Positions 11,741 to 46,734 of a stretch of DNA of 64,000 nucleotides are shown here, in pieces (within the stretch, counting starts at the first letter, position 1; every line of letters begins with the position of its first letter). The stretch covers positions 163,432,001 through 163,496,000 of the forward strand of contig NC_091981.1 in NCBI RefSeq assembly GCF_044704955.1, read 5' to 3'. The stretch is from Pristiophorus japonicus. Lineage: Eukaryota. The notes under the pieces were generated by a model, which did no database searches, was not told the DNA's origin, and worked only from the letters and a program-made list of their open reading frames with translations. The position numbers were made by a program, and so were the translations under genes.

Positions 11741-14700
11741 TAGAAACATAGAAACATAGAAAATAGGTGCAGGAGTAGGCCATTCGGCCCTTCGAGCCTG
11801 CACCGCCACTCAATGAGTTCATGGCTGAACATGCAACTTCAGTACCCCATTCCTGCTTTCTCGCCATACCCCTTGATCCCCCTAGTAGTGAGGACTACAT
11901 CTAACTCCTTTTTGAATATATTTAGTGAATTGGCCTCAACAACTTTCTGTGGTAGAGAATTCCATAGGTTCACCACTCTCTGGGTGAAGAAGTTTCTCCT
12001 CATCTCGGTCCTAAATGGCTTACCCCTTATCCTTAGACTGTGTCCCCTGGTTCTGGACTTCCCCAACATTGGGAACATTCTTCCTGCATCTAACCTGTCT
12101 AAACCCGTCAGAATTGTAAACGCTTCTATGAGATCCCCTCTCATTCTTCTGAACTCCAGTGAATACAAGCCCAGTTGATCCAGTCTTTCTTGATATGTCA
12201 GTCCCGCCATCCCGGGAATCAGTATAGTGAACCTTTGCTGCACTCCCTCAATAGCAAGAATGTCCTTCCTCAAGTTAGGAGATCAAAACTGTACACAATA
12301 CTCCAAGTGTGGCCTCACCAAGGCTCTGTACAACTGTAGTAACACCTCCCTACCCCTGTACTCAAATCCCCTCGCTATGAAGGCCAACATGCCATTTGCT
12401 TTCTTAACCGCCTGCTGTACCTGCATGCCAAGCTTCAATGACTGATTTACCATGACACCCAGGTCTCATTGCACCTCCCCTGTTCCTAATCTGTCACCAT
12501 TCAAATAATAGTCTGTCTCTCTGTTTTTACCACCAAAGTGGATAACCTCACATTTATCCACATTATACTTCATCTGCCATGCATTTGCCCACTCACCTAA
12601 CCTATCCAAGTCACTCTGCAGCCTCATAGCATCCGCCTCGCAGCTCACACTGCCACCCAACTTAGTGTCATCCGCAAATTTGGAGATAATACATTTAATC
12701 CCCTCGTCTAAATCATTAATGTACATTGTAAACAGCTGGGGCCCCAGCACAGAACCTTGCGGTACCCCACTAGTCACTGCCTGCCATTCTGAAAAGTCCC
12801 CATTTACTCCTACTCTTTGCTTCCTGTCTGCCAACCAGTTCTCAATCCACGTCAGCACACTTACCCCAATCCCATGTGCTTTAACTTTGCACATTAATCT
12901 CTTGTGTGGGACCTTGTCGAAAGCCTTCTGAAAGTCCAAATACACCACATCAACTGGTTCTCCCTTGTCCACTCTACTGGAAACATTCTCAAAAAATTCC
13001 AGAAGATTTGTCAAGCATGATTTCCCTTTCACAAATCCATGCTGACTTGGACTTATCATGTCACCTCTTTCCAAATGCGCTGCTATGATATCCTTAATAA
13101 TTGATTCCATCATTTTACCCACTACCGATGTTAGGCTGACCGGTCTATAATTCCCTGTTTTCTCTCTCCCTCCTTTTTTAAAAAGTGGGGTTCCATTGGC
13201 TACCCTCCACTCCATATGGAATGTTGGAAAATGACTGTCAATGCATCTGCTATTTCCAAGGCCACCTCCTTAAGTACTCTGGGATGCAGACCATCAGGCC
13301 CTGGGGATTTATCAGCCTTCAATCCCATCAACTTCCCCAACACAATTTCCCGACTAATAAGGATTTCCCTCAGTTCCTCCTTCTTACTAGACCCTCTGAC
13401 CCCTTTTATATCCGGAAGGTTGTTTGTGTCCTCCTTAGTGAATACCGAACCAAAGTACTTGTTCAATTGGTCTGCCATTTCTTTGTTCCCCGTTATGACT
13501 TCCCCTGATTCTGACTGCAGGGGACCTACGTTTGTCTTTACTAACCTTTTTCTCTTTACATATCTGTCGAAGCTTTTGCAGTCCGTCTTAATGTTCCCTG
13601 CAAGCTTCTTCTCGTACTCCATTTTCCCTTCCCTAATCAAACCCTTTGTCCTCCTCTGCTGAGTTTTAAATTTCTCCCAGTCCCTGGGTTCACTGCTATT
13701 TCTGGCCAATTTGTATGCCACTTCCTTGGCTTTAATACTATCCCTGATTTCCCTTGATAGCCACGGTTGAGCCACCTTCCCTTTTTTATTTTTACGCCGG
13801 ACAGGGATGTACAATTGTTGTAGTTCATCCATGCAGTCTCTAAATGTCTGCCATTGCCCATCCACAGTCAACCCCTTAAGTATCATTCGCCAATCTATCC
13901 TAGCCAATTCATGCCTCATACCTTCAAAGTTACCCTTCTTTAAGTTCTGGACCATGGTCTCTGAATTAACTGTTTCATTCTCCATCCTAATGTAGAATTC
14001 CACCATATTATGGTCACTCTTCCCCAAGAGGCCTCACACAACGAGATTGCTAATTAATCCTCTCTCATTACACAACACCCAGTCTAAGATGGCCTCCCTC
14101 CTAGTTGGTTCCTCGACATATTGGTCTAGAAAACCATCCCTTATGCACTCCAGGAAATCCTTCTCCATCGTATTGCTTCCAGTTTGGTTAGCCCAATCTA
14201 TATGCATATTGAAGTCACCCATGATAACTGCTGCACCTTTATTGCATGCACCCCTAATTTCCTGTTTGATGCCCTCCCCAACATCACTACTACTGTTTGG
14301 AGGTCTGTACACAACTCCCACTAATGTTTTTTGCCCTTTGGTGTTCTGCAGCTCTACCCATATAGATACCACATCATCCAAGCTAATATCCTTTCTAACT
14401 ATTGCATTAATCTCCTCTTTTACCAGCAATGCTACCCCACCTCCTTTTCCTTTTATTCTATCCTTCCTGAATGTTGAATACCCTTGGATGTTGAGTTCCC
14501 AGCCCTGATCATCCTGGAGCCACGTCTCTGTAATCCCAATCACATCATATCTGTTAACATCTATTTGCACAGTTAATTCATCCAACTTATTACGGATACT
14601 CCTTGCATTAAGACACAAAGCCTTCAGGCTTGTTATTTTAACACCCTTTGTCCTTTTAGAATTATGATGTCGTGTGGCCCTTTTTGTTTCTTGCCTTTGT

Positions 14701-17220: not shown

Positions 17221-17947
17221 GAACATTTAGCCATTTTTTATGACCTGTAAGAAATGAGTCACAATATTCTGAAGTTGGCATTACCATTACTCTTTATCAA
17301 AAGGTCTGTGTTTTTTTTCTTTTTGACCCTCAAACTCCTGCCATATTGAGGGTAATTCCTGTTTCCATGGCTTATTGGTTTTGTTTGTTTTCTGCTCATG
17401 CATGCAACATTGAAATTAATATTACAAACCTATTGAAACATCAAAATAGCTTTATTACTGCAATATTAACCTTAATTTACTAGAACAAACACTATGGGCT
17501 AAACTTTCCATCATTGTGCAGATCACCCAAAAATGGGCGTTATTTCCAGCGTTGCCATTTATTATGGGTTTTGAGATCATCAGATTATCGCCTGTTTCCA
17601 AAACCCCAGTTTCCATTTTATAAAATGGACGTTAGCGGGAGCGATGTGAAATGGGCGTTAGCAGTAATTTATTTTTCTTCTGCTGTAAAATGTCGGCATC
17701 CATAGCAACACCATAGCAATGGTCTTTTCCCGCATTTCAGGAGATCAGAGGTTATCAATACATGCGCAGAAGAGGAGAGAGAGAGAGCAGAGAGGAACAG
17801 AAAGCATGTGTGGGTTTCTTGTCTGGTTCTTTGTCATTTGTTAGGCTGTTGTGGGAGGTAGTAATGATTTTTGTGAGGAGTAAGAAGAAATTAGAGCACT
17901 ATTTAGTTCGGTGACACAGAAATATTGGCAACAAAAAAAATAATAAC

Positions 17948-20385
17948 ATGGAAGGTATGGAGGAGGCGAGACAGCACGATGTGGAGGGGGAGGAGGCTGG
18001 TGAGAGCAGTGAAGTTGGAGAGGAAGTGGAGTTGGGAGGATGAAGACGAGCTAGGAGATTCTCCGATGAGGCAAATGCTGCACTCCTGCAGGATGTGGAG
18101 TTACGTTGGGGTCAGTTGACCCGGGGTGGGCATGGGTAGCCCAGCCCAAAGGTTTACCAGAAATTTTGGACCGACATAGCTGAGGTGGTCTCGTCGGCGA
18201 CGCACGAGGTGCGTGAGAGCAACCAATGCCGCTAGTGCTATAACAACCTTGTCGGCTCCGGCAGTGTAAATATTACATTTATTTATATATTTATATAATT
18301 AGAATTGTAAGTGTAATGAGTGAATAAATTCAGATCTGATGTATTGCAGTTAGACCGGGAATATTTTACTCAACGCCTACGTTTATGGTGTACGTCTTTA
18401 GGTTTATAATGATAATAATAATCATCATAATAAATGTAACATCTGTCGGTTATGTGTAGTATCAGTATCTGTGACAGTACCTAGCAATGACCTTATGCAA
18501 TGATCTTATGCCATGTCGTGTTGTTGTTACCTTTTGCAGAGTGTAGGGTGTTTGTTTTTTCACTCTACTCTGATTCTTAGGCCTCGGAACTTATAGTGGG
18601 AAAGGACAACATGTGGCACAAAATTTTAGGTTTAACCCAGTGTTCGTTTTATTACACAACAAAAACCAACAAAAAACTACAGGACTAGACTGCCGAGAGA
18701 AATTGACTTTAGACATACAATCACCATTCCTGGCTGTAGCTATTGTAGGTTCGTGGTCATTGGTGTCATGATCGGTTGGTTCTTCAGTCCGTTCTCTGCA
18801 GCTTCTTGCTGTTTCTTTTCCTTCTGTGTCTGCTTGCTGTTTCTTCTTATGTACTTCTTCCTGATTCTGCTTTCTTCCTGTGTTCTCTGCTCTTCTTGCT
18901 TGTCTGTGTCCGTATATTTATATCCTGGTTTTGAATAAGTTTCCCACTGTGACAAAATTTGATTATTAGTCCGTTTAATTGTTTGGTGATGAGGTTAAAT
19001 TGTTCCTGATTTGTATACGGAGTTGACAATGCAAAAGATATTTCCATATGCTGAAATGCTGTTAGCCCAAAAATTTGCACCTTGGGCGGGGTCCTTTGTT
19101 ATTACAGACTTGATGTCTCCAAATGGCTATTTCGCCTCCCTGGTCAATCAAGTTTGGGGCTTCGTGTAACATTCCATTGTTGTTATGCATGAAGTTATGC
19201 ATGAAGTCCATTTTTTTGGTTCCTGACCACCAGTTTAATTCCAAATGTCCAGTTTAATTCCAAAGCTTGTATCAATCAATTTTTAGTTCATGGTCTGTGT
19301 TTGTTCTGAAGATTAGTAACCTTACAAGAAGAAGCTTTCGAAGAATAGGGCCAAGCAGCGGTGCTAGGGTGGCGGCCCACTAGTGATGTGCGAGCTGACT
19401 GACCTTGAGGAGCGGGTGCTGACACTAGTGGGTATCCACCACCGGTCGGTCACACATGCCGCAGTAAAACCAGATGTGATGCCACGTAAGTAAAGTATAC
19501 ACCATTGCGTGGTGTAAAGTCAATAGATGCCACACCCACTCATATCTGAACAATATATGATAGATGATTGATGAAAGTGTTATCTAATTAATGATGGGCT
19601 CATGAAAATCATTGTAATGCAGAATTTGGTTATGTTCATTAAATATGATGTCTGTGATTATTTTGAAAGTGGTATTGCAATTCTTGTGCATATGCTGTGT
19701 GTAGCGTTTGAATCACCCTGTGACCCTAGTACCCCCTTCTTCTCTATTAACCTCATTTATGTTTTGTAACTCAGCCAAGAGCGCAGTCACAGGCAACACC
19801 ACCGAGGCATGGCGCAGATCCGACGTCGACATCAGCAGGGCGGGCCCAAGCACTTTGCCGCAGGGCACCCCAAGTGTCTCCATGCAGGCGCCGACCCCAT
19901 GGAGGTTGGTTTGACGCAGCAGAACTGCTCCACGAGTGGCAGATCTAAGTGGGGACATGGTTCATTTGTCCAGGAGTGTTGACATAGGTCAGCAGATCCT
20001 CCAGACAATGGGGGGCATATCCCAACAGCTGACCACCATATCCACGACCATGACAGAGTAGGTGCCACGGATAGCAGTGGCCCTGGAGGTGATAGCCAGG
20101 AACACTGGTGCCACAGGGCTACCAGTGTTCCCGGAATGCGGCACTGTACCCCAAGGTGCCGCACCCCCATTGCCAATGACACATGCGAGCCAGGAGGAAG
20201 ATCTTGCTTCTGGCTCGGAGGAAGTTTTCTCCTCGGGACCGTCCTCTCCAGCATCCGGCCAACCAACGGATCTGCCGACATCCCCCCCAATGAAGCAGCG
20301 CCTGAGGAGCAGTGCGGCAAGGCGGCTTGGAGTCGGGAGGGGAAGGGATAGAGCTGGGGAGAAGCGGGGGGGAAAAGGAAAGTGA
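17948..20385 (+). pseudogene. Harbinger Myb/SANT-like DNA-binding protein of H1 (spliced, several stops)
   Basis: Exon 1 RRARRFSDEANAALLQDVELRW..FWTDIAEVVSS..RESNQCR*CYNNL, donor near 18265. Exon 2 KKLSKNRAKQRC*GGGP..LTDLEERVLTLVG (interrupted by solo LTR), donor GTAAGT 19486. Last exon ends GRGRDRAGEKRGGKGK*. Confidence 0.8.
18542..19326 (-). mobile_element. Solo LTR (785 bp), family unassigned
   Basis: TGTAGGGT...ACCTTACA termini, 4-bp TSD AGAG/AGAA. On minus, TATAAAT near 18915 and AATAAA near 18650. Splits Myb exon 2. Confidence 0.8.
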
Positions 20386-20676
20386 GGTGCATGGCCGCAG
20401 GAGTTGTAGTTGTGAGAGTATTGATGTTGTTGTTGTTGCTATTGAATAAATGTTGGGAGCTTTGGGGAAAGGGGAGAGGGGGGTACCTTGTATTTTTGCA
20501 CTTGTGTTCTCTGTGTTTGAAGTCTTGTTGGAAATGTTAAAATGTAATAGATGATATAAATGTTCTAAATTTGTTGTGGGGTGGGGTGGGGTGTTTTGTA
20601 CAGTTATCAGTATGATTTTATGCACATATTATCATTACATTTATTTGATTTAACATAACATTGTTGCGCATTTTCT

Positions 20677-20847
20677 CAGGTAAGACCGCTTCTCCCGATA
20701 AGTGCGTCAGGTGTAAGTTCTCGTCCTCCTCCTCAGTCTGTCACCCCTTTGACTGGGCACATAATGCTCTTCAATATACCTTCTGCCATCTTTAGTCTTC
20801 AGCATGTGCGTAGTCATCAAGACAGGCTGAGAAATTACAGGCCCCAT
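20677..20847 (-). pseudogene. N-terminal stub of HARBI1-like transposase (H1)
   Basis: MGPVISQPVLMTTHMLKTKDGRRYIEEHYVPSQRGDRLRRRTRTYT*RTYREKRSYL, then homology stops. Confidence 0.65.
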
Positions 20848-21904
20848 TACAATAACTATCAGTATTATACCGATTGTTCACAAACAATAAATTTACCTGC
20901 TAAAACAAATAAAATAAATGCAGATCGTCCACAGCATGATAAGATGTTTGTTCAGATGTTCAAATCACCTTAAAATAACTCTAGATTACATCAAAACTCC
21001 CCAGAAGTTGAAGCAGCCTTTTATATGAAAAGTCCTCTGATTTACAACATGGCGTTCATACCGCTGGGTTTAGTTCAGGTGAGAGCAACTTTTTCTCAGC
21101 GTTTGTTTCAGCGAGCGATGTTTTCGGCGATATGTGGGCGAGAAGCCGAAAGTAACGCGTGGCGATATTATGGGCGTTAGTTTCCATTTTTCTGATTTTT
21201 ATGGCAGAAAAAAATGGGCGGGCAGTATTATTAATTCTCGGCGTTAACTAAATGCCGAAAGTAACGCTGGGCGATAAGTGAGCGATAAATGGGCGTAAGT
21301 TTCCATTTTTTTCCTAAATGGGCAATATCTGGGCGTTAAACTCATCTCAGCGTTAAAATGGACGTTATGTGGGCGGTAGCGATGCAAAACTTATGGAAAG
21401 TCTAGCCCATTGTAACTAAAAGTAAAAAGACCCACTCTGGGATAGAATTTCCCCGGAGTTCTCCCAATCATTCTCTGTAACTCCAGAACTTAGGGCCTCC
21501 AACAAAATAATAGCATCTGTTTACTCATCCCCAATTTCCACTTCCTCTTTATTTTACAATTCTCTAACTGTCCTGGTGCTTTTTTAAACTTCAATTTTAC
21601 TTCTGTCAACCTAATGCAAGCTATTCTATCATTTATATTTCTTTTCCCCTAAAATGTTAAATTTAAAATCTTTACATAGAGTTATATTCAACCCAACTGG
21701 TTGGTGCTGGTGTTTATGTTCCATATGCCCTACTCCCACCCTACTTAATCTAACCCTATCAGCATATACTTGCCTGTTTCTTCCTTGTGTTCCCAACGTT
21801 GGGTGTTGAAAGCAAGTTTTGAAAATTTTCCTTGGCTGAAAACTGCCTTCAAATTCTGCTAACTGTCTTCAGGCAGAGGATTGAGGTGGAGTGATACAAC
21901 TAAT

Positions 21905-22820
21905 CGTGGCATGGGATCTTTTATATCCATCTGAGTAGGCAGATAAAAAAGGGGAGGTGCAACAAGACCTGGGTGTCATGGTACATCAGTCATTAAAAGT
22001 TGACATACAGGTACAGCAGGCGGTGAAGAAGGCAAATGGCATGTTGGCCTTCATAGCAAGAGGTTTTGAGTACAGGAGTACTACAGTTGTACAGGGCCTT
22101 AGTGAGGCCACACCTTGAATATTGTGTACAGTTTTAGTCTCCTAATCTGAGGAAGGACATTCTTGCTTGAGGGAGTGCAGTGAAGGTTCACCAGACTGAT
22201 GCCTGGGATGACAGGACTGACATATGAAGAAAGACTGGATCGACTATATTCAATGGAATTTAGAAGAATGAGAGGGGATCTCATAGAAACATATAAATTC
22301 TGACGGGATTGGACAGCTTAGATGCAGGAAGAATGTTCCCGATGTTGGGGAAGTCCAGAACCAGGGGTCACAGTCTAAGGATAAGGGGTAAGCCATTTAG
22401 GACCAAGATGAGGAGAAACTTCTTCACTCAGAGAGTTGTGAACCTGTGGAATTCTCTACCACAGAAAGTTGAGGCCAGTTCGTTAGATATATTCAAAAGG
22501 GAGTTAGATGTGGCCCTTACGGCTAAAGGGATCAAGGGGTATGGAGAGAAAGCAGGAATGGGGTACTGAAGTACATGGTCAGCCATGATCATATTGAATG
22601 ATGGTGCAGGCTCGAAAGGCCGAATGGCCTACTCCTGCATCTATTTTCTATGTTTCTATGTTTCATCTGATAGATAGGACCTCTACAGTACAGCACCTCC
22701 TCAGTATTACATTGAAGCGTCAGCTTAGATAATATGCTCAAGTCTCTGGAGTGGGACTGAAACCCACAACCAGCTGACTCCAAGATAAGGATGTCACCAC
22801 TGAGCCAGGGCTGGCACCTC
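21905..22820 (-). mobile_element. tRNA-derived Deu-domain-like SINE interrupted by a CR1 fragment
   Basis: Head rc GGCTCAGTGGTGAC..GGTTGTGGGTTTCAGTCCCACTCCAGAGACTTGAGCA at 22735-22810. Body resumes at 21905-21944. Confidence 0.6.
21945..22661 (+). mobile_element. CR1 3' fragment
   Basis: GEVQQDLGVMVH..RPHLEYCVQF..GIKGYGEKAGMGY* and (TTTCTATG)n tail. Same family as 11741 and 44501. Confidence 0.92.
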
Positions 22821-22913
22821 GGAGAACGTCACAGACGAGCTTGTCCTGTTCTCAGATCCCGACTGCTGTCCCGCCAGAGATCAGCTAACTCAGCATGCGG
22901 TATTAAAGACTCA

Positions 22914-23572
22914 GGTCCCGATATTGGTGGCCTTACCACCCACTGCTGCCCACTGCCGCCGACTGCCGCTGAGCTTTGCTGCCATTTTCTTCCCTTCGCC
23001 ATTTTCCACTTGGGCTGGAGCTGGTGGGAGCAGAGTACCGCAAGGAACGGCCCGCTGACATCCTCTGGCGGCCAAGTAGCGTAAGTGGCCTTCCGCCCGC
23101 CATGCTGCTAGATTGGTGTGGTTGGGAGTCGGCGGGAGTCGGCGCCAGCAGGGGGAAGGACCGCTGCGAGGAGGCTGTTCTAACCTCGACGGTAGTTTTG
23201 AAGAAGGGAAAAATAAATTAGTGAAAATATTTTAAAACATTTTTTTACAGCGACATATCTGGATGGGGTCCCCTGAAGGTGTTCCGGTGTTTTTTGTTTC
23301 CTGTGATTTTTATTTGCAGGTCTTCTACCCTCCCTAGGCCCGACTCCATCCTCGGCGGCACTTAGGCAGCAAAAGCTTTTGCCACCGAGATTGAGAGCTC
23401 CCGCAGGCTGCCACCCAGATTGACGGCGTAAGCCATTGTTTGGCCGCTGGGTGGTACTGCCACCTCTTTCAGAGGAATCTTCCTGGCAAAGTACCACCCG
23501 GTCTCTCGGCAGCCATCGGCGGTCCTTTGGGCAGCACTTGGGCGGGTCTTGACCTTCATCAATTCCGGCCCC
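22914..23572. mobile_element. Harbinger-type MITE (~660 bp), copy 1
   Basis: Imperfect TIRs GGTCCCGATATTGG / TCAATTCCGGCCCC, 3-bp flanks TCA/TTA. Colinear with 43844-44496. Confidence 0.8.
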
Positions 23573-23667
23573 TTAGAAAAACAGCTGTGCAGCACAGTAC
23601 AATTCAAATACTGTACAATGGAATGGTTAGGCATACGTTTGTGCCTGTGAGTTTCAACTCTAGGATC

Positions 23668-23862
23668 ACTCATCACTCACTCACTCATAGGCAGTCACTC
23701 GAAATGAGGATGACTTGCTTTTACGCCAAAAAAGGATGAGTTCACAGGTGTTTCTATGAAGGACCTGAACTACATACTGAAGAGTGGAAGATGCCTGTGC
23801 GTGGATTTATTTAACGTGTGGTGGCCGTTGCACACCAGCCACATGGGCTTGACAGAGCTAGG
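23668..23862 (-). mobile_element. Short bipartite RTE derivative (RTE 5' UTR fused to RTE 3' tail)
   Basis: rc matches RTE 5' UTR 35450-35550, then via a short linker RTE 3' end AAGCAAGTCATCCTCATTTCGAGTGACTGCCTATGA (cf. 41745-41788). Confidence 0.75.
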
Positions 23863-23866
23863 TGTT

Positions 23867-24078
23867 TGTTATGTATGGAGCAAGAGTCAGACTGAACACT
23901 GTGAGCTCAAAGTAAAGTGTGACCTTAGTCTTTTATTGCAGGTCTCCAGAGTGCCTCTCCAACCTGTGAAGTCTCCTTTAATACCTGTGCTCACAAGGGA
24001 TTATGGGATCCCTTGGGACTCCAGGGGATGAGCTCTCTGGTGGCTGTACAGAGTAAATAAAAGTTTACATATATAACA
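23867..24078 (-). mobile_element. Orphan 3' LTR of the A/G Gypsy group with PPT; internal region lost
   Basis: TGTTA...TAACA, homologous to LTRs at 10652 and 51173. PPT (rc of ACATTCCCCC) at 24079. Confidence 0.88.
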
Positions 24079-24098
24079 ACATTCCCCCCACCCCCCCC

Positions 24099-24345
24099 AT
24101 CCCTGATTTTAATCACTGCACCATTGATAGCCATGCCTTCAACCGCAAAGGCCCTAACCTCTGGAATTCCCTCACTAAACCTCTCCACCGCTCTACCTCT
24201 CTTTCCTCCTTTAAGACACTCCTTAAAACCTACCTCTCTGCCCTCATTTCTCCTTATTGGACTCGGTGTCATATTTTGTTTGATTATGCTCATGTGGAGT
24301 GCTTTGGGACATTTTACTACATTAAAGGTATTATATAAATACAAG
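24099..24345 (+). mobile_element. L2 LINE 3' end
   Basis: GPNLWNSL..FKTLLKTYL, then L2 tail ..TATATAAATACAAG, continuing GTGTTG after the Harbinger H2 insertion. Confidence 0.8.
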
Positions 24346-24692
24346 GGGGCCAAAATTGGTTGACATACCACCCGCTACTGCCTGCATACTGTTGACATAC
24401 TGCCTAAAATGCGATTTTGGTCAAAAATCACCTACATACCGCCGACATACCGCTCGGCGGTATATTCATCATTGACATACCGCTGAGCAGTATGCACATC
24501 ATCCAGCATGCAGGACCGCCTGCATACCACCCAAAAGGTCCGATTTTCATCGCATACCACCGACATACCACCGGAGCAGCATACCGTCCTGGAAAAGGTG
24601 GTTTTACGCGATGGTAAGTGGGCGGGAATGGGTGGTGTGCACGGAGCCGCCATTTTGGAAATTGGGAACTGTCAGCGAAAGCAGCACCTCTG

Positions 24693-27089
24693 TATCATCT
24701 GGACAAAGTGGGACTCAGACTGAAATGCCCGAAGTGCGTCTTCATGGCACCGGAAGTCGAATTCCTGGGAAGGAAAATTGCTGCTGATGGTATCAGGCCT
24801 ACGGACATGAAAACCAAGGCCATCAACAATGCACCCAAGCCTCAGAATGAAACAGAGCTGCATTCGTTCCTTGGCCTACTCAACTATCTCGGTAATTTCT
24901 TACCTAGATTGAGCACCTTATTAGAGCTACTATACATGCTGCTAAGAAAAGGCGACAACTGGGTTTGGGGTGCGTCTCAAGATAGAGCTTTTGAGAAAGC
25001 TACTAATCTGCTTTGCTCTAACAAGCTGCTGGTACATTATGATCCGTGTAAGCGCCTAGTATTGGCCTGTGATGCTTCGTCATATGGAGTTGGTTGCGTG
25101 CTCCAACAAGCTAATGAGTCGGGCAAATTACAACCTGTTGCATATGCTTCAAAAAGTTTGTCAAAGGCGGAAAGAGCCTACAGCATGGTAGAGAAGGAAG
25201 CACTAGCCTGTGTGTATGGGATTAAAAAGATGCATCAGTACCTGTTTGGTCTTCTGTTTGAACTAAAAAAGATCACAAGCCACTCATTTCATTGTTTATG
25301 GAAAACAAAGGTATCAATACAAATGCATCATCCCGCATCCAGAGGTGGGCGCTGACATTATCTGCCTATGATTATGTCATTCGCCATAGACCTGGCACTG
25401 AGAATTGTGCCGATGCATTGAGCCGTCTGCCTTTGCCAGAACCACCACAACCGACAGACCTACTGTTAGTCATGGATGCTTTTGAAAGTGAAGAAACCCC
25501 TGTCACGGCCCAACAAGTTAAGACCTGGATCAGCCAGGACCCGATATTATCGGTTGTGAATTGTTGTATCATTAGTGGTGATTGGTCTGCCATACCCCAG
25601 CAAATGTGTGAGGAGAACAAACCTTACATCCGTCGCAAAGACGAACTATCCATTCAATCAGGTTGTATACTGTGGAGTAATCATGTTGTTATGCCCAAGA
25701 AAGGCAGAGAGAAATTTGTGCATGATCTACATAGTATGCATCCCGGTATTGTCATGATGAAAGCCATTACTAGGTCTCATGTATGGTGGCCTGGAATTGA
25801 CTCTGATCTGGAATCATGTGTGGATCAGTGCAACACTTGCATGTAGCTTAGTAAAGCATCAGCGGAATCGCCGCTGAGTCTATGGTCGTGGCCATCTAAA
25901 CCATGGTCCAGGATCCACGTCGACTTTGCAGGTCCCTTCCTGGGAAAGATGTTCTTAGTTGTGGTGGATGCTTATTCCAAGTGGATAAAGTGTACAATCA
26001 TGTCATCCAGCACATCCACAGCTACAATTGAGAGACTTAGTGTCATGTTTGCTATGCATGGTCTGCCTGACATAATTGTAAGCGACAACGGAACTTGCTT
26101 CACCAGTATGGAGTTTCAAGAGTTCACGAAACTCAATGGTATCAAACATGTGAGGTCAACACCATTCAAACCCGCATCCAATGGACAAGCAGAGTGTGCG
26201 GTCCAAACCATCAAGAAGAGTATGAAACGTGTAACTCAAGGTTCACTGCAACCTCGCTTGTCACGCATATTGCTTAGTTACAGGACAAGACCCCATACGC
26301 TTAACGGGGTCTCCCCTGCTGAACTATTGATGAAGAGAGGTCTCAAGACCAGGCTCTGTCTTGTCCACCCTGACTTGAATAATCGTGTCGAATACAGACG
26401 TCAAAGTCAGCAAGGCTATCATGATCGTGCTACTGTGTCACGCGACATTTCTATCAATGATCCTGTGTAGATACTGAATTATGGTCAAGGTCCCAAATGG
26501 ATTGTCGGTACTGTTACAGCCAAGGAGGGTAACAGAGTGTTTATCGACAAGCTCAAGAATGGGCAAACATGCAGGAAACATGTCGATCAGATAAAGCTGC
26601 GGCACACAGATGAACTGGAACAGTCTGAGGAAGACACAATCAGTGACCAACCAACCTACCCTCAGTCATCAGAGGACTCCGCTGTCATCAATGAATCTGG
26701 ACTTTCAATCCCTGACGTGGTCATTGCCACTCCCATCAGATCGGCTACCCAGTCCCTAGTCATAACAGACTCAGAACACTCGCCCAAGGCTGGAGTTGAA
26801 CTGAAACGTTCAACTCGGGAGTGGAAAGCCCCGGACTGTATCAATTTGTAAAAAGACCTTTATTAATATCTTAAAGGGGGATATTGTCATGTATGTATGC
26901 TTGGGTTTACTAGCCACCAGGTGGTGCCACTGTCAGAGGTCATTAGGCTGTGCGCACGTGTGTGCAGCTCAGGTATAAAAGGCCAGCCATCTTGTAATGT
27001 GATCAATTTGGGCCCTAATAAAGCAGAGCCAGGTTTGTACCTGTGTTAGATTACAGTATTCAGTCTATCGAGTTATTACATACATAACA
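24693..27089 (+). mobile_element. Gypsy fragment C: 3' half of pol (RT end, RNase H, integrase) + PPT + 3' LTR
   Basis: LACDASSYG, HPGIVMMK..CNTC, IHVDFAGP, VSDNG. PPT AAAGGGGGATAT. LTR 26885-27089 closely matches the LTR at 48518. Confidence 0.92.
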
Positions 27090-27225
27090 GCTGACAACCT
27101 GTCTAATGGATTAAGCAGATGTGAGGAAGTTTATTTAGCGGAGTTATAAGGGTAATGGAAGAGGTCGCAGAATGATGAAGAGAAGGAGGAGACCTTACCC
27201 GCAAAGGATCTTCAGGGAAAAGTTT
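27090..27225 (+). pseudogene. N-terminal stub of HARBI1-like transposase (H2)
   Basis: LTTCLMD*ADVRKFI*RSYKGNGRGRRMMKRRRRPYPQRIFREKF, then AT-rich 3' region with AATAAA. Confidence 0.65.
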
Positions 27226-27419
27226 CACACTGTACAAGAGTGCTTAAATTCAATTCAAACGTTTATGTAAAAATGTAAAAAATATATAATTTTAAAACTT
27301 TTTAAAACTTATAACTATAAAACAACTGTAGCAACTTTAATAACAACTTTAACAAAACTTTAAAAACTTTAATAAATGTTTACAAATAAAACTTCAAGTA
27401 CAACAAAAAGACCCTTCAC

Positions 27420-29286
27420 TTTCCCCGCTCACGCCCTTTGCCCCTTCCACGCCCACGTGATACACCACCCTTAGGACTACTCCCCCCTTTCTTACTCCCG
27501 CCCTCTGTTTCCCAGTGCCCGTGGGCATGGACCTCCCCTATTGATACCAAGTCGGCATGCAGTATCGTACCCCAAGTGCCATTGCTGTTATTGTGGGGGG
27601 CGGGAGATCAGACATTGCAGGCGCAATAACTGAGGCCTCAGGAGAAGCTCGCAATGTGGAAGGCGAGGCTTCAGGGTTGGGTGATGATGTCAGCTCCTCA
27701 CCCTCAGGTGCTGTTGACCTCACTACAACGGCATGGGGGGGGTTCTGCGCCCTGTCCCAATCCCGTCAATTGCCGCATGGCTTAGACGGCGTCGGTGGTT
27801 TGATCCATCGCGGCGATCCTCCGACTGCCGCTCTAATAGAACCGTGATGTTTGTGGCTATTGCAGTCATGGCTTTGAACAGCTCTCGACCTATGTCGATG
27901 CTGGCCTGTGACAGACGACCCATGTCCTAGTACACGCCTACAACAACCGACCTTTCCTGCACCAACCTCCGTCGTTGTGGCAAAGGCTGGGGGTGCCTTG
28001 CTGCGCACGGCTTGGTCCGGCAGAATCAGAGGATGTATGGGGACATCCCCTGGATACAGACTCCATGGTGGAGGATGTTCCAACTGTTCCACATGGAGCT
28101 GATGCATCCTCCTCCGTCTTCACCCCAGCTCCACCTCCACTCGTTGCCGGATCAACGGCTATTCCTGTTCCTCTTCCCCTTCATCTTCCTCGTCAAGAGA
28201 GGGCTGAGTGATGCCAGAGGTAGAGGCAGTGGGTCTGTTGTCTGTATCGTCTGGTCTGAATTATCTGAGTCTGGAAGTACAAAACAATATTTAAAAAAGC
28301 TTGGCACCAGGAAAGGGGTCAGGGTTATATTAGTACATAGCACAGTGACTTATTGTAGTCTTACTTAAATGTCCACCACAGCTGCTGTACAGCATTACAT
28401 AGCACAGACTGAATACATATATGCATTGCATTACATGCTCCCAACATTCCAGCACATCACATGAGGCCACCATTACAGTGCAATAAACTTACATTACGTT
28501 ACATCAGGCCAACATTACAGTACAATAAACTTACATTACATTACATCAGGCCAACATTACAGTTACAGTTACATTACATGATATGAGAGGACCACAATGC
28601 AGAATGCATTTTATTCAATTTACCATCTTCTTGTGTGAGTGGGTCAGCTCCAATGCCGGTGGCACGGTTGCTATCCTCAACCAGGGACAGCGCACGGATC
28701 TCAATATCAGTAAGAGGCTCTTGGGTTGTGGGTCGTCCCCCGTGCAATGCTGATCGGCTGCTATTGCAGATGTCCTCTTCTGCAGAAAGTAAAGTAAATC
28801 AAAGTAAAAATCTTCAATCCAATTAACATCACATACACACACACACATAAAAAAGCACTGCGTTGATCCTCTTGTCATTGCCTGAAAAGCACGAATACAT
28901 CGCCATAACCTTAAGATAAATAACATCATCCGTGTGACACTGAACCTACATTTACATGATACATGGTACATGGGAGTGTATAAATAAATATTATTACTTA
29001 CTCTTGCTACCCTCACCAGGTCGTTCCACCTCTTACGGCATCTTTCCCCGGTGCGTACTATTGTACTTTTAGAGGACACAGCTTCCACGATCTCATCCCA
29101 TATTTGGTTTTTACTTCTTTGTGGTGGGGGGGGGGCTTTCCACGACCACCCTTGGTTAGCTCAGAGTACCTCTCTGTTATGTGCTCCAGAAGGACAGGTA
29201 ATTCCATCTCATCGAAGGCAGGCCTCCCCTCCCCTCCCCTCCTGCTTGATGTTCCTGCACTTTGATGTCTTTTTTAACATTGCCAT
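27420..29286 (-). pseudogene. Harbinger Myb/SANT-like protein of H2 (3 exons, frameshifts)
   Basis: Exon 1 (29286-29002) PAFDEMELPVLLEHITERY..QIWDEIVEAVSSKSTIVRTGERCRKRWNDLVRVAR|GTAAGT. Exon 2 (~28781-28623) KRTSAIAADQHCTG..LTDIEIRALSLV. Exon 3 from ~28271 to a Gly/Arg-rich end. Confidence 0.82.
28471..28562. repeat. 42-bp tandem repeat, about 2.2 copies, in a Myb intron
   Basis: CATTACAGTRCAATAAACTTACATTACRTTACATCAGGCCAA starts at 28471, 28513, 28555. Confidence 0.85.
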
Positions 29287-29457
29287 AACCTTTTTACAAG
29301 TATGAATTTTGGTTTGTTAAGTATCTCTTCTTGTCTTCAAAGTGAAGAATTATTAGTTGTTAGCAATATATTTCCACTGTGCTGTGTATTTTTAAACTCA
29401 CTGCCCGTCGACTACCTTGCTGCTCCTTCTCACTCTCTCTCTTTCCTCCTCAATTCA

Positions 29458-29498
29458 CTGCGCATGCGCGGGTGACCCCTGACCCCTGAAATCGCGGG
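29458..29498 (-). promoter_or_regulatory. Putative promoter block of the Harbinger Myb gene with NRF1-type palindrome
   Basis: TGCGCATGCGCG plus GGGGTCAGGGGTCA, ~170 bp upstream of the ATG. Homologous to 17729-17770 in H1. Confidence 0.5.
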
Positions 29499-31449
29499 TA
29501 AAATGCTTGTGTAAAAAAAAGGGGGAAAAAAATTTGCGCATGTGCAGTTCCGTGCCACACCGCCCATCAAACAGAAAGTCGATCTGGATCGACTACTAAG
29601 ATACATACCACCCGATGTAGACCATTGACATACCGCCGAAAAAATTATGACCAATTTTGTCCTCATCGGTCTTGGTGGTGTGAAATGACATATCACAGAG
29701 AAATGGGCGGACCTTACGTATCAATCAATTTCGGGCCCAAGGTGTTGTGCTTTAATGCCTGTAAGGCTTGTTTTACCTTGCTTTGTCTGGCATTAACGGC
29801 CTCACAATGAAGTTGGTAGCCTTACTGCTCTGTTAACCTCAACAATGGGACTGACAACAATGGATGCCCAAAGTGCTTACTTGTTTCAGGCAGTAGGTAC
29901 CTTTTAATAAATCGGGGGTCACAGGAACACGATTGCCATTTTAGGTTGGATCTGGTCAGAGCATGTCCAACCAGTTCCATGGGTGATAGAGCCGATAGGT
30001 CAGCAAAGGTAAGTTTGGAATTATTCTTGTGGGAGGACCTTCCCCCTCTGCGATCGTGACCCCCATCCACCTCCTGTTTACTATGTTGGTGACCAGGGTG
30101 GCCAAATATTGACCACATTTAATCCGGCACCTGTTTGGAATGCCACAGTTAGGCAGCCTGATGTAAGTAAAGCCTGGGCCTCAAGATCGCAGCCTCTTCT
30201 TCGCTGTGACATGTTCTACTGTTTGGTCAAAATCCACCCCTGTGTTATTGGACCATAAAAGTTCATAGGAAATATTACAGGAATTTGGCCAAGCATTTGT
30301 TTCATTAATCACCCACAGAGCACTGTTTAAGTAAACTGATGCTCTGATATAGCATAAAAAAATCACAGAGCTCGAGAATTCAGTTCATAGTTTTTTGCAT
30401 TTGCATAATTTTTTTTAACTAGCTCTTTACCCTCATGATGCACTTTACATTTTGTGTTATTCTGCATCTAGGCACTTTCGCTTTTTTCATCTATTTTTTG
30501 TTTCGCTTCTTCCTGAAATGCTTTGATAGAGTGTTGACATTGCTAACCTTTGACTTGCCTTACCTCAAAAGCCTCTTTTACATTACTGCACAAAAAAAAA
30601 TTCTTTTATCATTTCTTTTCAACGTTTTAATTAGCTTCAATTTGGTATGGAATAATGGGTATCCAGAATGAATTACAGATGTGTGTGTAGTCCTGAGTTG
30701 GTTTGTGGCCAATACGTGCTGTGCATACAAATACAGTTCCAACATACTCCTGTCACATCTCCCATCACCATTCATTATTCTGTACAACGTATATTCAGCT
30801 TCATTGCTTATTCAGTTTCTTTTTCTTAAATGGCTGGTATCATGTTGGACAGTCTGCTACCACCCACTGTGAAGATTCCTTGGGTAAAGTATCAGAAGTA
30901 ACCATTACCCATGGAGTTGGTACTCCATAAAGGAAGTTAATGTATTCAGGAGGCAGTGAAAGGAAAGAAAATTGGAGGAGGAAAATTAGAGCAAAAAAGA
31001 GCTCTTTTGATAGTTTTGTGACATGACTGCAATGGTGTCCTGCCACATGCCATGAAGTTGATAGCTATAGTGGATCCACGAATCAGAGGAGCAGATTCAT
31101 TAATCAGAGGAGCAACCAGGTATAAAGAGTTGTGCGATAACAAAGGCAGTTCAGGGGTTTGAAGTGTGGAGAGAGGGGGCATAGATTTGGGGAGAATTTT
31201 GCCTTTAGTCCCCCCCCCCTCCCCAATCTCTGTAGTTATTCCTATGTAATGTAACAAATTAGTTGAGCATTAGTGTTGTGATTTGTGATATCTAATACAC
31301 CTAGTACACTTCAGAACAACAGCAACAGCAGATTTATAAAGCATATGTACTTACCTATTGTATTTTAAAAATCTTGCATCTAGCACACACCCCTCACATT
31401 TTATGGTGTCACAATTTGTTACAAATGTTAAATAATCTTTTTTTAAAAA

Positions 31450-33216
31450 GAGAATGAATTTGACCTGGGAAATAGTGAAGAATGGCACATCATGGGAGAG
31501 CGCGGGCTCCAAGGTTTTCCGACGCTGTACTGGAGGCCTTCATGGAGGAGGTGGAATGGAGGGTTCAAGCTGCACGGACCTGGATGCAGTGCAGTAAGAA
31601 GTTCAATGATCTCACATGAGTGGTCAAGGTCAGTGAATGCATCTTCAAATGCCATATTCTACTGAATGCACCACTAGCCTCAGCCACTGTTAAATGCACC
31701 ACTCTCCCATCACTCACCTACCAACAATCTCTATCAATCAGGACTCATACCTAACCTCATAGCTTCACCTCACCCTCACACACTTAGCACTGCTGCAAGC
31801 CTCACACCCACTTCTCACAGATCACACACACTACCAGCTATTCAACCATGACAGCCACATCGCCCAATCAGATTGCATGATGCTCACTGACACACTTCCC
31901 TCTATCTTGCAGGAAAAGAGAACGCACAACTGGAGGCAGCAGGAATAACCGGCATGGGACTGCTGTGCCTGCATGTCCTAATCCCCATGTTGAAATGCTG
32001 AGGCCATGGATAGCGGCAAGGTTGAAGCCATCGAAGATGATGGTAACCTCACACCTAATCCTCCTTCTCACATCCTACTTCCCCCTCATCCCACAATCTC
32101 TTCTGATTTACAAGCTGCAGATGGTGTAAGCATGCACCTCTTACTTTCCCCCCACCACAACCTTACCCATGCCTTTCTCTTTTCAAATAAGAACTGCAAC
32201 CCGACCAGGCAGTGGTGGAAGAGCAAGAAAACAGTCACGATGAAGACACAACATCACTCGAGTTAACACTCACAGCCACCAGCTCAAATACTGACACTAC
32301 ATGTAATTTAGAGGATAGTATAGAGGCAGAATCTGTACATGTTGAGGCATCAGGTATGAGTGGCCTGCAGCCAGATGTTAACGTTATGGTTTTCTGGCCA
32401 ATTAACCCTTTCACTCCTAAGTTCCAAAAGATTAGACTTGACCCGTATTGATGACAGTGATTACATTTTATTCAGTCTAAGTGAGACTTGATACATTACA
32501 GCATCTGAGCAGTAGTGATACAAGGTGCAATCAAGATCTATATTACCCATTATGACCTGGGTATAATGTCTCACGCATTGTTACTCCCTGAGGTTCAGGT
32601 AGGAGAATTGCTCCCTGAACACCCTGGGTGGATAGGGCCTCCTGCTGAGAGCTCTTCTCCCCCTCCTCCTCCTCCACCTTCCAGCAACAAGGCCTGCTTT
32701 GCGTGACTTCTGCTCATTCTCCAAGTCATACTGTATTCCAAGGGGAATTCCTGCTAGTGCATCCATGTCTGGCAGAAAGTGTTTTGTGCAGAACCATTGA
32801 AGTCAGGAAAAAGTCCTTCAGCACCTGCCACACCACTCCCTGTAGATGTTTGCAACTTGAAGCAGCTATAGAAAGCACCAAACACTTGTAGAATCATACC
32901 AACAGGCAGAATAAATCAACCAGCAACTAACCTGTAAGTAATTGATGATCCCTTTAAATAGCATGGTGGGGATTCCTTCCTTCTCTCTGCGAGCATAAGG
33001 GAGGGCATTAGCTGGAGCGTTGAGCTCCGAAATGGCGCTGGTGTCAAATCAGCGTACACGTCATGATCTGCCTACTCTTCATACTTCCAGCGGGCATTCA
33101 CTATGCGCATGCCAACGCCCTCACCAGTATGCGTGCACATCTCGGATGCCATTTTGGACCTCTAAGGGCACTTGTAGCACCCAAAAAACAGGTGCTACAG
33201 ATCCGAATTTTGCACC
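31450..33216. mobile_element. PIF/Harbinger derivative H3 (left end missing, central deletion)
   Basis: Myb exons on + (RARAPRFSDAVLEAFMEEVE..RTWMQCSKKFNDLT; ELQP..DEDTTSLELT, cut at ~32374). Transposase stub on - (32581-32790, RRPYPPRVFREQFSYLNLRE). TIR-like CCGAATTTTGCACC at 33203-33216. Confidence 0.75.
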
Positions 33217-33599
33217 AACACTATATATAGTTTTCAGGAATTCAGTAGCTCTGTACTTGTGTGTTATGTTTGTAGGAAAGTAGATCAACATCACCTGAAA
33301 TGGCTGGGAGACATTAAATGCAATTGTTGGGAGCATTGCTCTTTGAGTCCTGCATGTGCCTGTGATGCTCTCTGCTGACCTTGCACCACATGCACCATTT
33401 CAAATGATGCTTTATTTTGCACATGTGGAGATGACTATTGCTTAGTGCATGATGTGTTGGGAGTGCTACGGATTTAGGGTGGGCTATCTGGTACCAACAA
33501 TACTTAAAGAGCTGCTGATGACCCTTAGATCTGTCCTGCAACTGAAGGGAAAAAATGGGGAAGGAGACAAAGGGGGAAACTACACCATGCAGTTGCACT

Positions 33600-34482
33600 G
33601 CTTTGGAGGCCCAGTAAAGAAGAGTAACTCTTTTCGAAGGTCACCTCCTAGCCAGGACAACTGGTTCTGGCTGCAGGGAGTGAATGCTGTCTCATTGCAA
33701 CCAGACCAGTTGAAAAAGAAATGTTGTGAAGCGCACAACACAAGTGAGAAGGAACAATTGCAGGTGAAACTGCAAAAAGCACTACCTGCTGACAGCTTGA
33801 GATGTCCTTCAGGTGCTGAGCCAAGAGATTCAAATCTCATAGGATTTGCATACAAACATAGTTTGGTAACTCACTATCAGTCCTCCATGGAGTCATTTGA
33901 GAGTGTGCCAAACAATCTTACAGTTTGGGGGCATCACCTGACATCAGATTACTTGAGGGAGCTCCAGAATAGCATGGAGAATGGAGCCATCTCCATAATG
34001 GCTCTCTGCAGTCCTTGGAAGAGGACTTAAACACATTTGTTTCCATCATGAAAGCTTTGACTGGGACTCTTGAGAGCTTGGGCTTTAATCCATAGCAGTC
34101 TGCCTTGTCTGGATTCGCCATATTGGAGAACCAGATAACGCAGAGCTACAACAACTTCATTGCTGCCTGAGCTCTGTTCCTAACCAGATCTTTGGAAAGG
34201 ATAATCTCTCAGTGCATTTCCACATTTATAGCATCTAGTCACCATGCTAAAATGACACCAAATGTGCTAAATATCATGTAGGTCGCAGAAGGCACCATAG
34301 CAATACCCATGGTACCTACACATCCAGTGCCATATCTTAACCCAACACAAGAAGGTACTGGATGACCTCCATATTTAAAGACAGACAGTGATATCCAGCA
34401 GCCATTAACTTCACTTCCTCTTTCCATTTGAGAACCAGTTAGAAGTTTCACTAAGGGCAAGCATTAGGGAAAAGCACACTGA
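33600..34482 (+). pseudogene. 3' exon of an old Harbinger Myb-like gene (H4)
   Basis: DSNLIGFAYKHSLVTHYQSSMESFESVPNNL, coiled-coil then Pro-rich segment, basic end KGKH*GKAH*. Convergent with the fossil transposase. Similarity is weak. Confidence 0.45.
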
Positions 34483-37400
34483 ATAATCTACACTACACAC
34501 TGTATGGGTTAAAAGAAGCTGAGCTCATAGTAGAATCTGTCTTGATAATTCTTTTGGTCTGAGGCAGATTAGGGTTTTTGGGGAGAAATTATGTGGTATC
34601 CATGTCTCACCATTGCAAATGATGCTTTATTTTGCACATGTGGAGATGACTATTGTGCATTGGAGATATAATGCACTTAATTAAAAGTTTGGTTGATTAG
34701 ACCTTGTCTAATGAATCCAATTTATTGAGCTGTTTGTTGTGTGGGCAAATCTGTTATCTTGTGGTTAGGCTTGTCTTCTTTCTCTGGTTGCTGCTGACTT
34801 TCTTTTCCTGCCTGTTTCATGTCCATGCCCCTCTATAGAGCAAAATTGTGCTGGAAGAAGCAGGCTATAATAATCTTTGAGGTGTTGTCTGAGCTTTACT
34901 GTAGAACTCCCTGATCTGACATTTGAATAATTGCACAGGAATGTTGATGGCATTCTAATGATGTGCTGATCTAAGGCCCTCGTGGATGAATGTTCCACAT
35001 TGTACATCTCCTTAAGTCTTGTCCTTGGATTCTGCAATGGAGTCAGACCCATGGCTGCAGTGAAGATCCTTGCCCCCACCCTCCCTCCACCCCCGTCCTC
35101 CTCAGAGACTTTGTGGCTCTTCAAATAATGCTGATAGAGTTGACTGCTGCAGAATGTAGGAATCATGGGAGCTGTTAGGTTAATGGACATACACATGCAC
35201 AATTCTGTTCCCAAAAACCAACTACACTTTCATGGAGTAGTAACTCTTTCTGTTCATGAATGGAGTAGCATTGAAGTAGGGCCATGAATGCAATCAATAA
35301 TGTGCTCACAATGGAAAATGATGAATGCACTGGCTCTGGCAAACAATGCGCTGGTGATCTACGTGATACAATCGTATCCCGCCGTAGGCAACTAGGCTCA
35401 TACAGCAGTGCCTGGTCTCCAGTCATCTTGGACCCCCTGCCACTGGACCTTGCTCTGCTAAGCTGGTTATGGTAGCCGGTGTGCAACGGCCACCCCATAT
35501 TAAAAAAACTCACGCACAGGCATCTTCCACCCTTCACAATGAAGTTCAGGACCTGGAACATCAGGACCCTCATGGCCAACTCCAACAGCGACAGACCGGA
35601 ATGTTGCACCATCATCGTTGCCCAGGAACTTAAATGGTTCGATGTCAACACCGCCACCCTAAGCAAGACCCGGCGGGCAGGGGAAGGCCAGCTCAAAGAA
35701 CAAGGTGGCGGTTACACCTTCTTCTGGAAAGACAAACCTGAAGAAGAACGCCGCCTCCACGGAGTCAGTTTCGCCATCAAGAACGAGCTGGTCGACTGCC
35801 TCAGAGACTCCCCCTGCGGGATTAACGAACGTCTCATGACTCTCCGGATCACCCTATCCCGGAACCAGTGCTCCACAGTTATCAGTGCGTACGCCCCAAC
35901 ATTCGACGCAACAGATGAGGCCAAACAGATATTCTACTCCAGCATTAAACAATCCCTGTCCCACGTCTCTACTCACGACAAACTGATCCTCCTCGGCGAC
36001 TTCAACACCAAAGTCGGTCAGGCCACAGACCTCTGGGGAGGCGTGATCGGCAGAGGGGGCATAGGGAAAACCAACTCCAGCAGTACCCTGCTCCTGACAA
36101 AATGACTAGGACACGACCTTGTCAACACCAACACCTTATTCCGCCAGAGCGACAAATACAAGGCATCGTGGCAACACCCTCGCTCCTAGCACTGCTTGAC
36201 TACGTCATTGTTCGAGCAAGGGATCGCAAGGACGTGCGCATCACCCATGCCATGACAGGAGCCGACTGCTGGACGGACCACCACCTAATCCGTTCTGTCA
36301 TCAACATTAATATAGCCTCAAATTGACGACGGCAACAGAAGCAATGCCGCAGAAAAATCAACGCCGGGGCACTCAAAGACCCAGCTAAGAGAGCCCGATA
36401 CAACCAATGCCTCACTGCTAACCAGGCAACCCTCGATGACCCTGAGTCGCAGAGTGCCCACAGTGCTTGGTCTGCTCTCCAGGCCACCATAATCTGTGCA
36501 TTCGAAGAGACACTCGGTCACTCAACCAGGAAACACCAGGACTGGTTTGATGAGAATGACCAGGAGATCCAAGAGCTAATAAACCGCAAGCGCAGGGCAT
36601 TTCTGAACTTAAAGTAACAACGCAAGTCGGGAGCAGCAAAGCAGCTTTACAGACGGCTGAAGGCCAAGGTCCAACAAAAAACCCGCGATCTAAAGAATAG
36701 ATGGTGGATGGAGAAAGCACAGGAGATTCATCAGCTGGCCGACAGCCATGATGTGCGAGGATTCTTCACCGCAGTCAAGTCCACCTATGGCCCAAGCACC
36801 CAAGGCCCCATCCCACTGCTAGCCAAGAATGGGGAGACACTCATCAAGGACACCGAGGCAATCAGGACCCGCTGGAAGGAGCATTTCAAAGATCTCCTTA
36901 ATTGAGACTCTGCCTTTGACACGAATGTCCTTGACTCCATCCCGTAGCATGCTGCCCGCCACCATCCCAGCAAAACCTCAGCCCTGCATGAGGTAGAAAA
37001 GGCCATCCATCAGCTCAAGAACAACAAGGCATCTGGAGCAGATTAAATCTCCGCTGAGGCACGAAAGTATGGCGGAGAGGCACTATTGGCATGAATGCAT
37101 GACCTCATCTCTCTCATCTGGAAGGAGGAGTGCATGCCTGGAAATCTCAGAGATGCCGTAATCGTGACCATCTTTAAAAAAGTGGACAAGTCCAACTGCG
37201 GCAACTACAGAGGAATCTCCCTGTTGTCGGCCACTGGGAAAGTCATCGCTAGAATCCTCCTCAACTGTCTTTTCCCTGTGGCTGAGGAGCTCCTCCCTGA
37301 GTCACAGTGTGGATTCCGTCCGCTAGGGGGTACAACGGACATGATCTTAATCGTGCGACAACTGCAACAGAAATGCAGGGAACAGCAGCAACCCTTGGAC

Positions 37401-43760: not shown

Positions 43761-43843
43761 GAGGGTGGATGGAACTTTAGCCCAGCATAAATCAGTGCCT
43801 TCCAAAAAGGAGATTGGTCACATAAATGTGGGGAAAACATATA

Positions 43844-44496
43844 GGCCCCGATATTAGTGGCCTTACCGCCCACTGCCGCCGACTGCCGCCAACTTTTGCC
43901 ACCGGTCTCCCCAATGTGCCAGTTTCCACTCGTGCTGCAGCGGGCAGGAGGGGAGTACCGCCGGGAACCGCCCACTGACGGCTGCTGGCGGCCAAGTAGC
44001 GCAAGTGTCCTCCCGCCCGCCAAGCTGCCAGATCGGTGCAGGCAGGAGTCAGTGCAGTCGGCGACAGGAGGGGGAAGGACCGTTGCATGGAGACAGGTCT
44101 AACCCCGATGGTGTGTAAAACGACCTGCAAAAAAAGGTGAGCGAACATCTTTAAAAACATTTTTTTACAGCGTCTTACCTGGATGGGGTCCCCTGAAGGT
44201 GTTCCAGTGTTTATTTTTTTTTGGTAATGGTTTCTATTTCCAGCTCCTCCAACCTCCCTGGGCCCGACTCCATCCTCGGCGGCACTTGGGCAGCGAGCGC
44301 ATTTGCCGCCGAGATTGAGAGCTCCCGCCTGCTGCTGCCCAGATTGACGACGTAAGCCGTTATTTTGCTGCCGGGCGGTACTGCCACTTCTTTTAGAGGG
44401 ATCTTCCTGGCAAAGTACCACCCGGTCTCTTGCCAACTATCGGCGGTCCTTTGGGCGGCCCTTGGGCGGGCTTTGGCGTTGACCAAGTTCGGGCCC
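43844..44496. mobile_element. Harbinger-type MITE, copy 2
   Basis: TIRs GGCCCCGATATTAG / CCAAGTTCGGGCCC, perfect TSD ATA. Colinear with 22914-23572. Confidence 0.85.
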
Positions 44497-44500
44497 ATAC

Positions 44501-46728: not shown

Positions 46729-46734
46729 TTTACA

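Follow-up and report, generated by a model that had tools for sequence, protein, structure and literature searches.

The window analysed here is a stretch of 64,000 nucleotides of the Pristiophorus japonicus genome (contig NC_091981.1, positions 163,432,001 to 163,496,000 of the forward strand), and the present study concerns three elements within it, H1, H2 and H3, which are derivatives of Harbinger DNA transposons. CR1 and Gypsy elements crowd the window, the DNA is that of a repeat-rich vertebrate, and the proteins nearest to its features come from two sharks, Heptranchias perlo and P. japonicus itself. Harbinger transposition needs two proteins: the Myb protein binds the ends of the element and brings the transposase into the nucleus by way of the N-terminal end of the transposase, and nuclear import is assigned to the Myb protein, not to a nuclear localization signal (NLS) of the transposase (PMC2836001 and PMC9392472, citing Sinzelle 2008).

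Three elements with facing genes

A first-pass annotation made from the letters alone had described Myb/SANT exons and a truncated transposase in H1, H2 and H3. The pair is indeed seen in all three, the Myb exons and the transposase remnant, or stub, facing each other, and the end motifs quoted there are present in the sequence. No intact DDE transposase occurs in any of the three, and the Myb copies are disrupted, as the annotation had also said: stops, frameshifts and internal deletions leave no intact Myb open reading frame. Two reference proteins were used for the stubs. The first, P0009 (XP_067840046.1), is a putative nuclease HARBI1 of H. perlo, near full-length at 360 residues and matching DDE_Tnp_4 (PF13359, E 5.5e-16), on which the breaks are numbered; the second, P0008, is a P. 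japonicus gene model containing a transposase piece. The H2 and H3 stubs align to P0009, and all three stubs align to the transposase part of P0008. In addition, contigs from four public runs were aligned to positions 17400-33300 of the window (mean aligned contig around 80 nt), with minus-strand contig coordinates taken in the direction of the record itself, as implied by X5 record 10, which ends at the H1 terminal inverted repeat (TIR). Contig depth is read as an indicator of family abundance and not as a copy count, and the type of runs X5-X7 is unrecorded, so that their depth and joints serve as a hint only. A search for public sequencing runs gave four with DNA, from one study, and none with RNA, which says nothing either way on expression.

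H1 (17496-21408) has TIRs matching at 15 of 17 nt and is flanked by TAT and ATT, an imperfect target-site duplication (TSD) rather than a clean one of 3 bp. Its Myb/SANT gene lies on the plus strand (17948-20385), with three exons (17948-~18260, ~19323-19485 and 19775-20385) and both introns retained, and it carries six stops (three, one and two in exons 1, 2 and 3, in that order) as well as a frameshift. Pfam Myb_DNA-bind_5 (PF13873) matches exon 1 at E 0.0013, under the curated cut-off. Exon 3 is 59-75% identical to P0012-P0014, with 22 codons standing where P0013 has 84 residues; around 60 codons are therefore missing, and the missing segment is present in P0012 and P0014 too. Beyond the Myb gene lies an AT-rich spacer of 291 nt (20386-20676) with AATAAA on each strand, at 20445 (+) and at 20645 (-), the polyadenylation signal on the stub strand standing 30 nt past the H1 break. 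The stub, on the minus strand (20677-20847), has 57 codons with a TGA at codon 47, and its homology ends at P0009 residue 54. Because most of the contig depth at 20709 (7395 of 8503.6 depth units, 81 contigs) reads CGA, an Arg codon, this stop is specific to the copy and the family stub is open at that codon; full-length family copies would give the same Arg reading, which is therefore uninformative on selection after the deletion. The H1 break also coincides with a splice-consensus sequence, CAG/GTAAGA (20667-20683, +), made on the Myb strand by the Ser-Tyr-Leu codons of the transposase.

H2 (24346-29738) has TIRs matching at 14 of 17 nt and a 3-bp TSD (AAG/AAG). A 5′-truncated Gypsy retrotransposon (24696-27089, +) with one long terminal repeat (LTR; 26883-27089) is inserted in the start of its transposase, and the stub that follows (27091-27225, +) contains two stops and loses homology at P0009 residue 51. 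A spacer of 201 nt separates the stub from the Myb/SANT gene, which lies on the minus strand (27427-29280), has three exons (~29280-29002, 28779-28624 and 28270-27427) and is frameshifted; Myb_DNA-bind_5 matches its first exon at E 6.8e-08. In one X5 contig the span 28249-28657, which encloses intron 2 of this gene (28271-28623), is skipped, and in X5-X7 depth is relatively higher over the H2 Myb exons. The first-pass statement that H1 and H2 keep both TIRs and the whole Myb span is borne out for the TIRs, but not for exon 3 of H1. The window also contains two copies, 78% alike, of a Harbinger-type miniature inverted-repeat transposable element (MITE) of around 660 bp (22913-23579 and 43843-44506), the TIRs of which are like those of H2; no transposase match was found in either copy, and a further TIR-like end lies at position 770.

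H3 is less complete. Its Myb remnant (31482-32374, +) lacks around 30 Myb-domain residues in exon 1, gives no Pfam Myb match and is cut in exon 3 at 32374. The loss of the 3′ part of the gene had been noted before, but the loss is larger, since those domain residues and the left TIR are gone as well: the single TIR is that of the right end (33201-33216, -), and a left one sought in 27000-31500 reached at best 10 of 16 nt, a score of 10 or more being reached by 100 of 100 shuffles. At the break lies a foreign piece of 194 bp (32375-32568, -) that is probably the 3′ half of an LTR. It ends in TAACA and has AATAAA 98 nt before its end, as in the LTRs of the window, and it shows no sequence match to any of the four window LTRs compared. 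The stub (32569-32766, -) has 66 codons with a TAA at codon 62, and its homology ends at P0009 residue 63-64. The end LNLRE given in the first-pass annotation is merely this premature TAA, five codons before the true break, and homology continues as XQCVR to 32569. Five of the 8 listed pieces from run X2 lie over the H3 stub; three of these continue unaligned (216, 253 and 127 letters, from 32568, 32594 and 32655), the remaining two simply end, and none of the five enters 32375-32567. The junction thus looks private, since no listed X2 contig over the stub enters the LTR-like piece. As a separate observation, family depth over the Myb part of H3 is around six times that over the stub and right end (31737-33300); two elements may have been joined in H3 as a chimera, or its Myb part may be common to more subfamilies.

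Position and independence of the breaks

On P0009 numbering the transposases break at residues 51 (H2), 54 (H1) and 63-64 (H3). Past none of the three breaks was transposase similarity found (122, 71 and 189 of 200 shuffles scored as high), so that the H1 and H2 deletions remove the gene body and spare the spacer. Subterminal motif arrays lie within around 300 nt of the ends of H1 and H2, and none is clear in H3, as read with no shuffle control; the repeats stop 160-500 nt short of the breaks. The idea that the stub is kept for the sake of subterminal motifs was therefore rejected, the motifs ending far short of the breaks, and so was a common distance between break and TIR, since the distances are 732, 486 and 648 nt. 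Host domestication of H1-H3 was rejected too. No junction has an unusual hairpin (z -0.45, 0.25 and -1.25).

Two lines of evidence suggest that the deletions were separate, because the relationships of the stubs differ and the DNAs past the breaks share nothing. The H2 stub is identical to P0008, which runs through the break, at 25 of 34 positions and to the H1 stub at 17 of 43, while the stub of H3 is nearest to P0009 (32 of 63). The post-break DNAs of H1, H2 and H3 are mutually unrelated (129, 91 and 127 of 200 shuffles score as high), and the Myb domains of H1 and H2 are 37% alike. A single ancient deletion behind both H1 and H2, which their stubs, forming one clade, and breaks only 3 codons apart might suggest, is hardly credible given this unrelated post-break DNA, the low likeness of the Myb domains and the closer relation of H2 to a protein that continues through the break.

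All three families are clearly highly repeated. In run X2, where the single-copy flank has a depth of 14.6-16.8, summed contig depth is about 2,300-5,300 times the flank over the H1 bins, 370-1,240 times over the H2 Myb bins, and around 2,800 times over the H3 Myb bin against around 450-510 times on the stub side of H3. Among the joints and loose ends listed, mostly from CR1, there is no row at 20676 (H1) or 27225 (H2), which is evidence neither way on these two junctions.

Why would three transposases end so close to one another? If breaks fall uniformly over codons 50-360, the chance model adopted here, the probability that three of three lie within 12 codons is 0.005, and for the H1/H2 pair within 3 codons it is 0.023 for two of two, 0.13 among 4 and 0.21 among 5. 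The bound of 50 at the low end comes from recognition, since a stub that does not reach the RRPY motif would go unnoticed. Three other transposase fragments, all on the minus strand and left uncounted in the first-pass annotation, break elsewhere than H1-H3: H4, an old C-terminal fragment (34760-35300); H5 (41029-41212), which extends to P0009 residue 116; and H6 (41799-41984), which extends to residue 122 and is an 86% duplicate of H5, a local one separated from it by a CR1 piece. In each case 0 of 40 shuffles reach the P0009 score of the fragment. The claim that the transposases end near the same N-terminal point is correct as to position, and the clustering is real but modest once H4-H6 are counted.

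Origin of the derivatives

The best explanation, to which we give a probability of about 0.62, takes H1 and H2 for decayed members of highly repeated Harbinger families. Each lost its transposase body, probably in an internal deletion of its own, and retained the Myb gene along with the two ends; H3, on this explanation, is probably a one-off wreck. The internal deletions would have arisen by ordinary errors of gap repair after excision, abortive gap repair being the model given for derivatives of PIF/Harbinger in Medicago (PMC2213677). As long as its Myb gene was intact, such an element may have been mobilised by the transposase of autonomous relatives, whether its own Myb protein took part or not; a derivative with both ends could in principle be mobilised in trans with a working Myb gene of its own or a dead one. 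The history would then run from internal deletion through possible spread in trans to decay. As to H3, an LTR piece probably inserted in Myb exon 3, and a later deletion would have taken the end of the Myb gene and the transposase body jointly. The close cut points probably reflect small numbers together with a bias of recognition, stubs being noticed only with the RRPY motif and fragments cut elsewhere being omitted. The stub itself probably has no role, and a function for it is not needed, because the MITE pair does without a transposase match, the subterminal repeats stop short of the breaks and no junction hairpin is seen.

In the first-pass annotation the elements were put forward as a possible semi-autonomous class, 'Myb-only', for which transposase would be borrowed in trans. 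An element of this kind, retaining its Myb gene, is a plausible reading for H1 and H2, whereas H3 does not fit: a single TIR is present, the Myb domain has suffered a deletion, and the break adjoins an LTR-like piece absent from three listed family contigs.

Several observations pull the other way from decay by separate, ordinary deletions. What is missing from both H1 and H2 is almost exactly the transposase body, and polyadenylation signals remain on both strands. The three breaks within 12-13 codons still have p = 0.018 when taken as three of 4 and p = 0.042 as three of 5, and H5 and H6 are a weak control for them, because they are old, represent one duplicated event and start near the same motif. 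One H3-family contig ends its alignment at 32594, two letters past the codon of the H1 break, where the stop may be due to trimming or to a further deletion at that site. Finally, the evidence on the H3 junction is limited to the 8 listed X2 pieces.

A wider proposition is that mobile Myb-only subfamilies have arisen in shark Harbinger lineages again and again, each time independently, with the transposase cut at one boundary, just past the basic RRPY-SYL motif and ahead of the folded region that binds Myb. Behind this would stand i) selection against a dominant-negative fragment, ii) use of a short basic peptide or iii) a splice-like hot spot. We regard the proposition as unlikely.

The best of the rival explanations, though unlikely, is that selection caps the length of the stub. 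A Myb-retaining derivative with more than around 65 codons left would still produce the N-terminal region that binds Myb; this fragment would sequester the Myb protein, and the element would not spread. Successful subfamilies would then be those with a cut at the first folded region or ahead of it, and the stub would be tolerated rather than useful. This would agree with the import of the transposase by Myb-like proteins that bind its N-terminal end (PMC9392472), and with the structure Atlas, in which the predicted HARBI1-like models matched by P0009 residues 30-165 begin to match at residues 30-52. Moreover, if breaks can fall in codons 50-70 only, a cluster of three within 12 codons is unsurprising (p = 0.64), though this range was picked after the data had been seen. 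Expression of the stub is nevertheless an assumption, H3 was probably never mobile in its present form, and the single-sequence model is unusable (predicted local distance difference test, pLDDT, 38), so that it cannot fix the domain boundary.

More doubtful still is the original proposal of a semi-autonomous Myb-only class in which an Arg-rich peptide of 55-65 residues, or its promoter, is kept by selection. The clustering of the breaks, the absence of the codon 47 stop from the majority of the H1 family, the polyadenylation signal shortly past the H1 break on the stub strand and the X5 contig that skips the region of H2 Myb intron 2, from a run of unrecorded type, would all be in keeping with it. 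Nothing was found, however, in support of selection on the stub. None of the three elements has an intact stub or an intact Myb gene in these copies; the stubs are interrupted by one stop in H1, which is copy-specific, two in H2, besides the Gypsy insertion, and one in H3. H3 departs from the proposal in its TIR, its Myb domain and its junction, the MITEs have no transposase match, and the Harbinger3_DR transposase is described as having no NLS (PMC2836001).

A deletion hot spot set by the sequence of the Ser-Tyr-Leu codons is improbable. Such a spot might act at the RNA level, if read-through RNA of the Myb gene were spliced at this site and the loss then templated by cDNA, or it might act in repair. 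The codons read CAG/GTAAGA on the Myb strand in H1, where the break lies on the site, and CAG/GTAGGA in H3, and the H3-family contig mentioned above stops aligning there. Yet the H2 break falls three codons earlier and does not have the motif, that of H3 falls nine or more codons later, H1 retains both Myb introns and the junctions have no unusual hairpin.

Searches, neighbouring features and known systems

A profile built from the three stubs matched 3 proteins among 1.84 billion representatives, namely P0008, P0009 and P0010, and no stub-sized protein was among these 3 matches. Other protein searches for longer stub relatives found none, which is weak evidence, as one such search missed P0010. 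Relatives of the locus were confirmed neither among viral contigs (2 pattern matches) nor among metagenome contigs (296 pattern matches), and the 15 loci given by a search with the stub pattern were chance matches in 15 of 15 cases. No solved structure was found, and the structure Atlas had no match for the stub. P0008 and P0010, both P. japonicus gene models, are Harbinger transposase pieces fused to other exons; in one of them the transposase piece follows enoyl-CoA hydratase sequence, and the other begins with an H1-family N-terminus. Such fusions are possibly cases of exonisation or artefacts of annotation.

Elsewhere in the window, a frame of 781 open codons for a CR1 reverse transcriptase (44599-46944, -) belongs to a young copy, 94% alike to 11741-13949. 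A stop-free frame of 194 codons (33446-34030, +) lies outside the mapped repeats and has no Pfam match, and neither has an open frame of 122 codons at 66-434 (-), which we take to resemble the end of an MHC class I gene, with the end of the alpha-3 domain, the transmembrane segment and the cytoplasmic tail in a single frame.

Harbingers that retain only the gene for the DNA-binding protein have already been published; novelty would lie in a recurrent cut site alone. The literature covered, which leaves aside subscription papers and Repbase, showed no report of a common N-terminal breakpoint, and the supplements of the papers on Myb-only elements may show breakpoints. On the best explanation, H1-H3 matter little: they are further cases, decayed and from a shark, of a Harbinger derivative whose kind is already published. 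They also show abundant Harbingers in a cartilaginous-fish lineage, whereas an earlier study reports none in the elephant shark and calls for more cartilaginous fish (PMC9179366). Recurrence of the cut site across many subfamilies, if proved, would point to selection or to some mechanism by which non-autonomous elements are shaped, and the site would mark the interface between transposase and Myb protein; a single boundary of this kind would set a rule for the splitting of two-gene transposons and give a natural map of that interface.

Compared with an autonomous element of the Harbinger3_DR type, or with P0009, the derivatives share the two genes, the TIRs (a single one in H3) and, in H1 and H2, the subterminal repeats, a clean 3-bp TSD being seen in H2; the whole DDE body is missing in H1-H3. 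The closest parallels are Harbinger-1M_cIno and Harbinger-2M_cIno of Caenorhabditis inopinata, which, like H1 and H2, are flanked by TIRs, keep a Myb/MADF gene and have lost the DDE transposase, and for which supply in trans has been proposed (PMC13668399). In that species 19 Myb/MADF-only Harbingers are described, 14 of the 19 MADF loci being intact, several expressed and one having made a fresh insertion, whereas the window copies are all decayed; in addition, the part of that paper available mentions no retained N-terminal stub, in contrast to those of H1-H3 (PMC13668399). Among vertebrates, the solo-ORF variants of Harbinger-Snek in sea kraits, of which Laticauda colubrina has 452 intact Myb-only ones, are multi-copy, encode the DNA-binding protein only and are ascribed to large deletions, as here, although they form one recent family and their breakpoints are not described in the accessible text (PMC8437027). 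NAIF1 and MSANTD1-4 likewise represent a Harbinger Myb gene that has parted from its transposase, but they are conserved host genes, whereas the copies in the window are repeated, flanked by TIRs and broken (PMC9392472).

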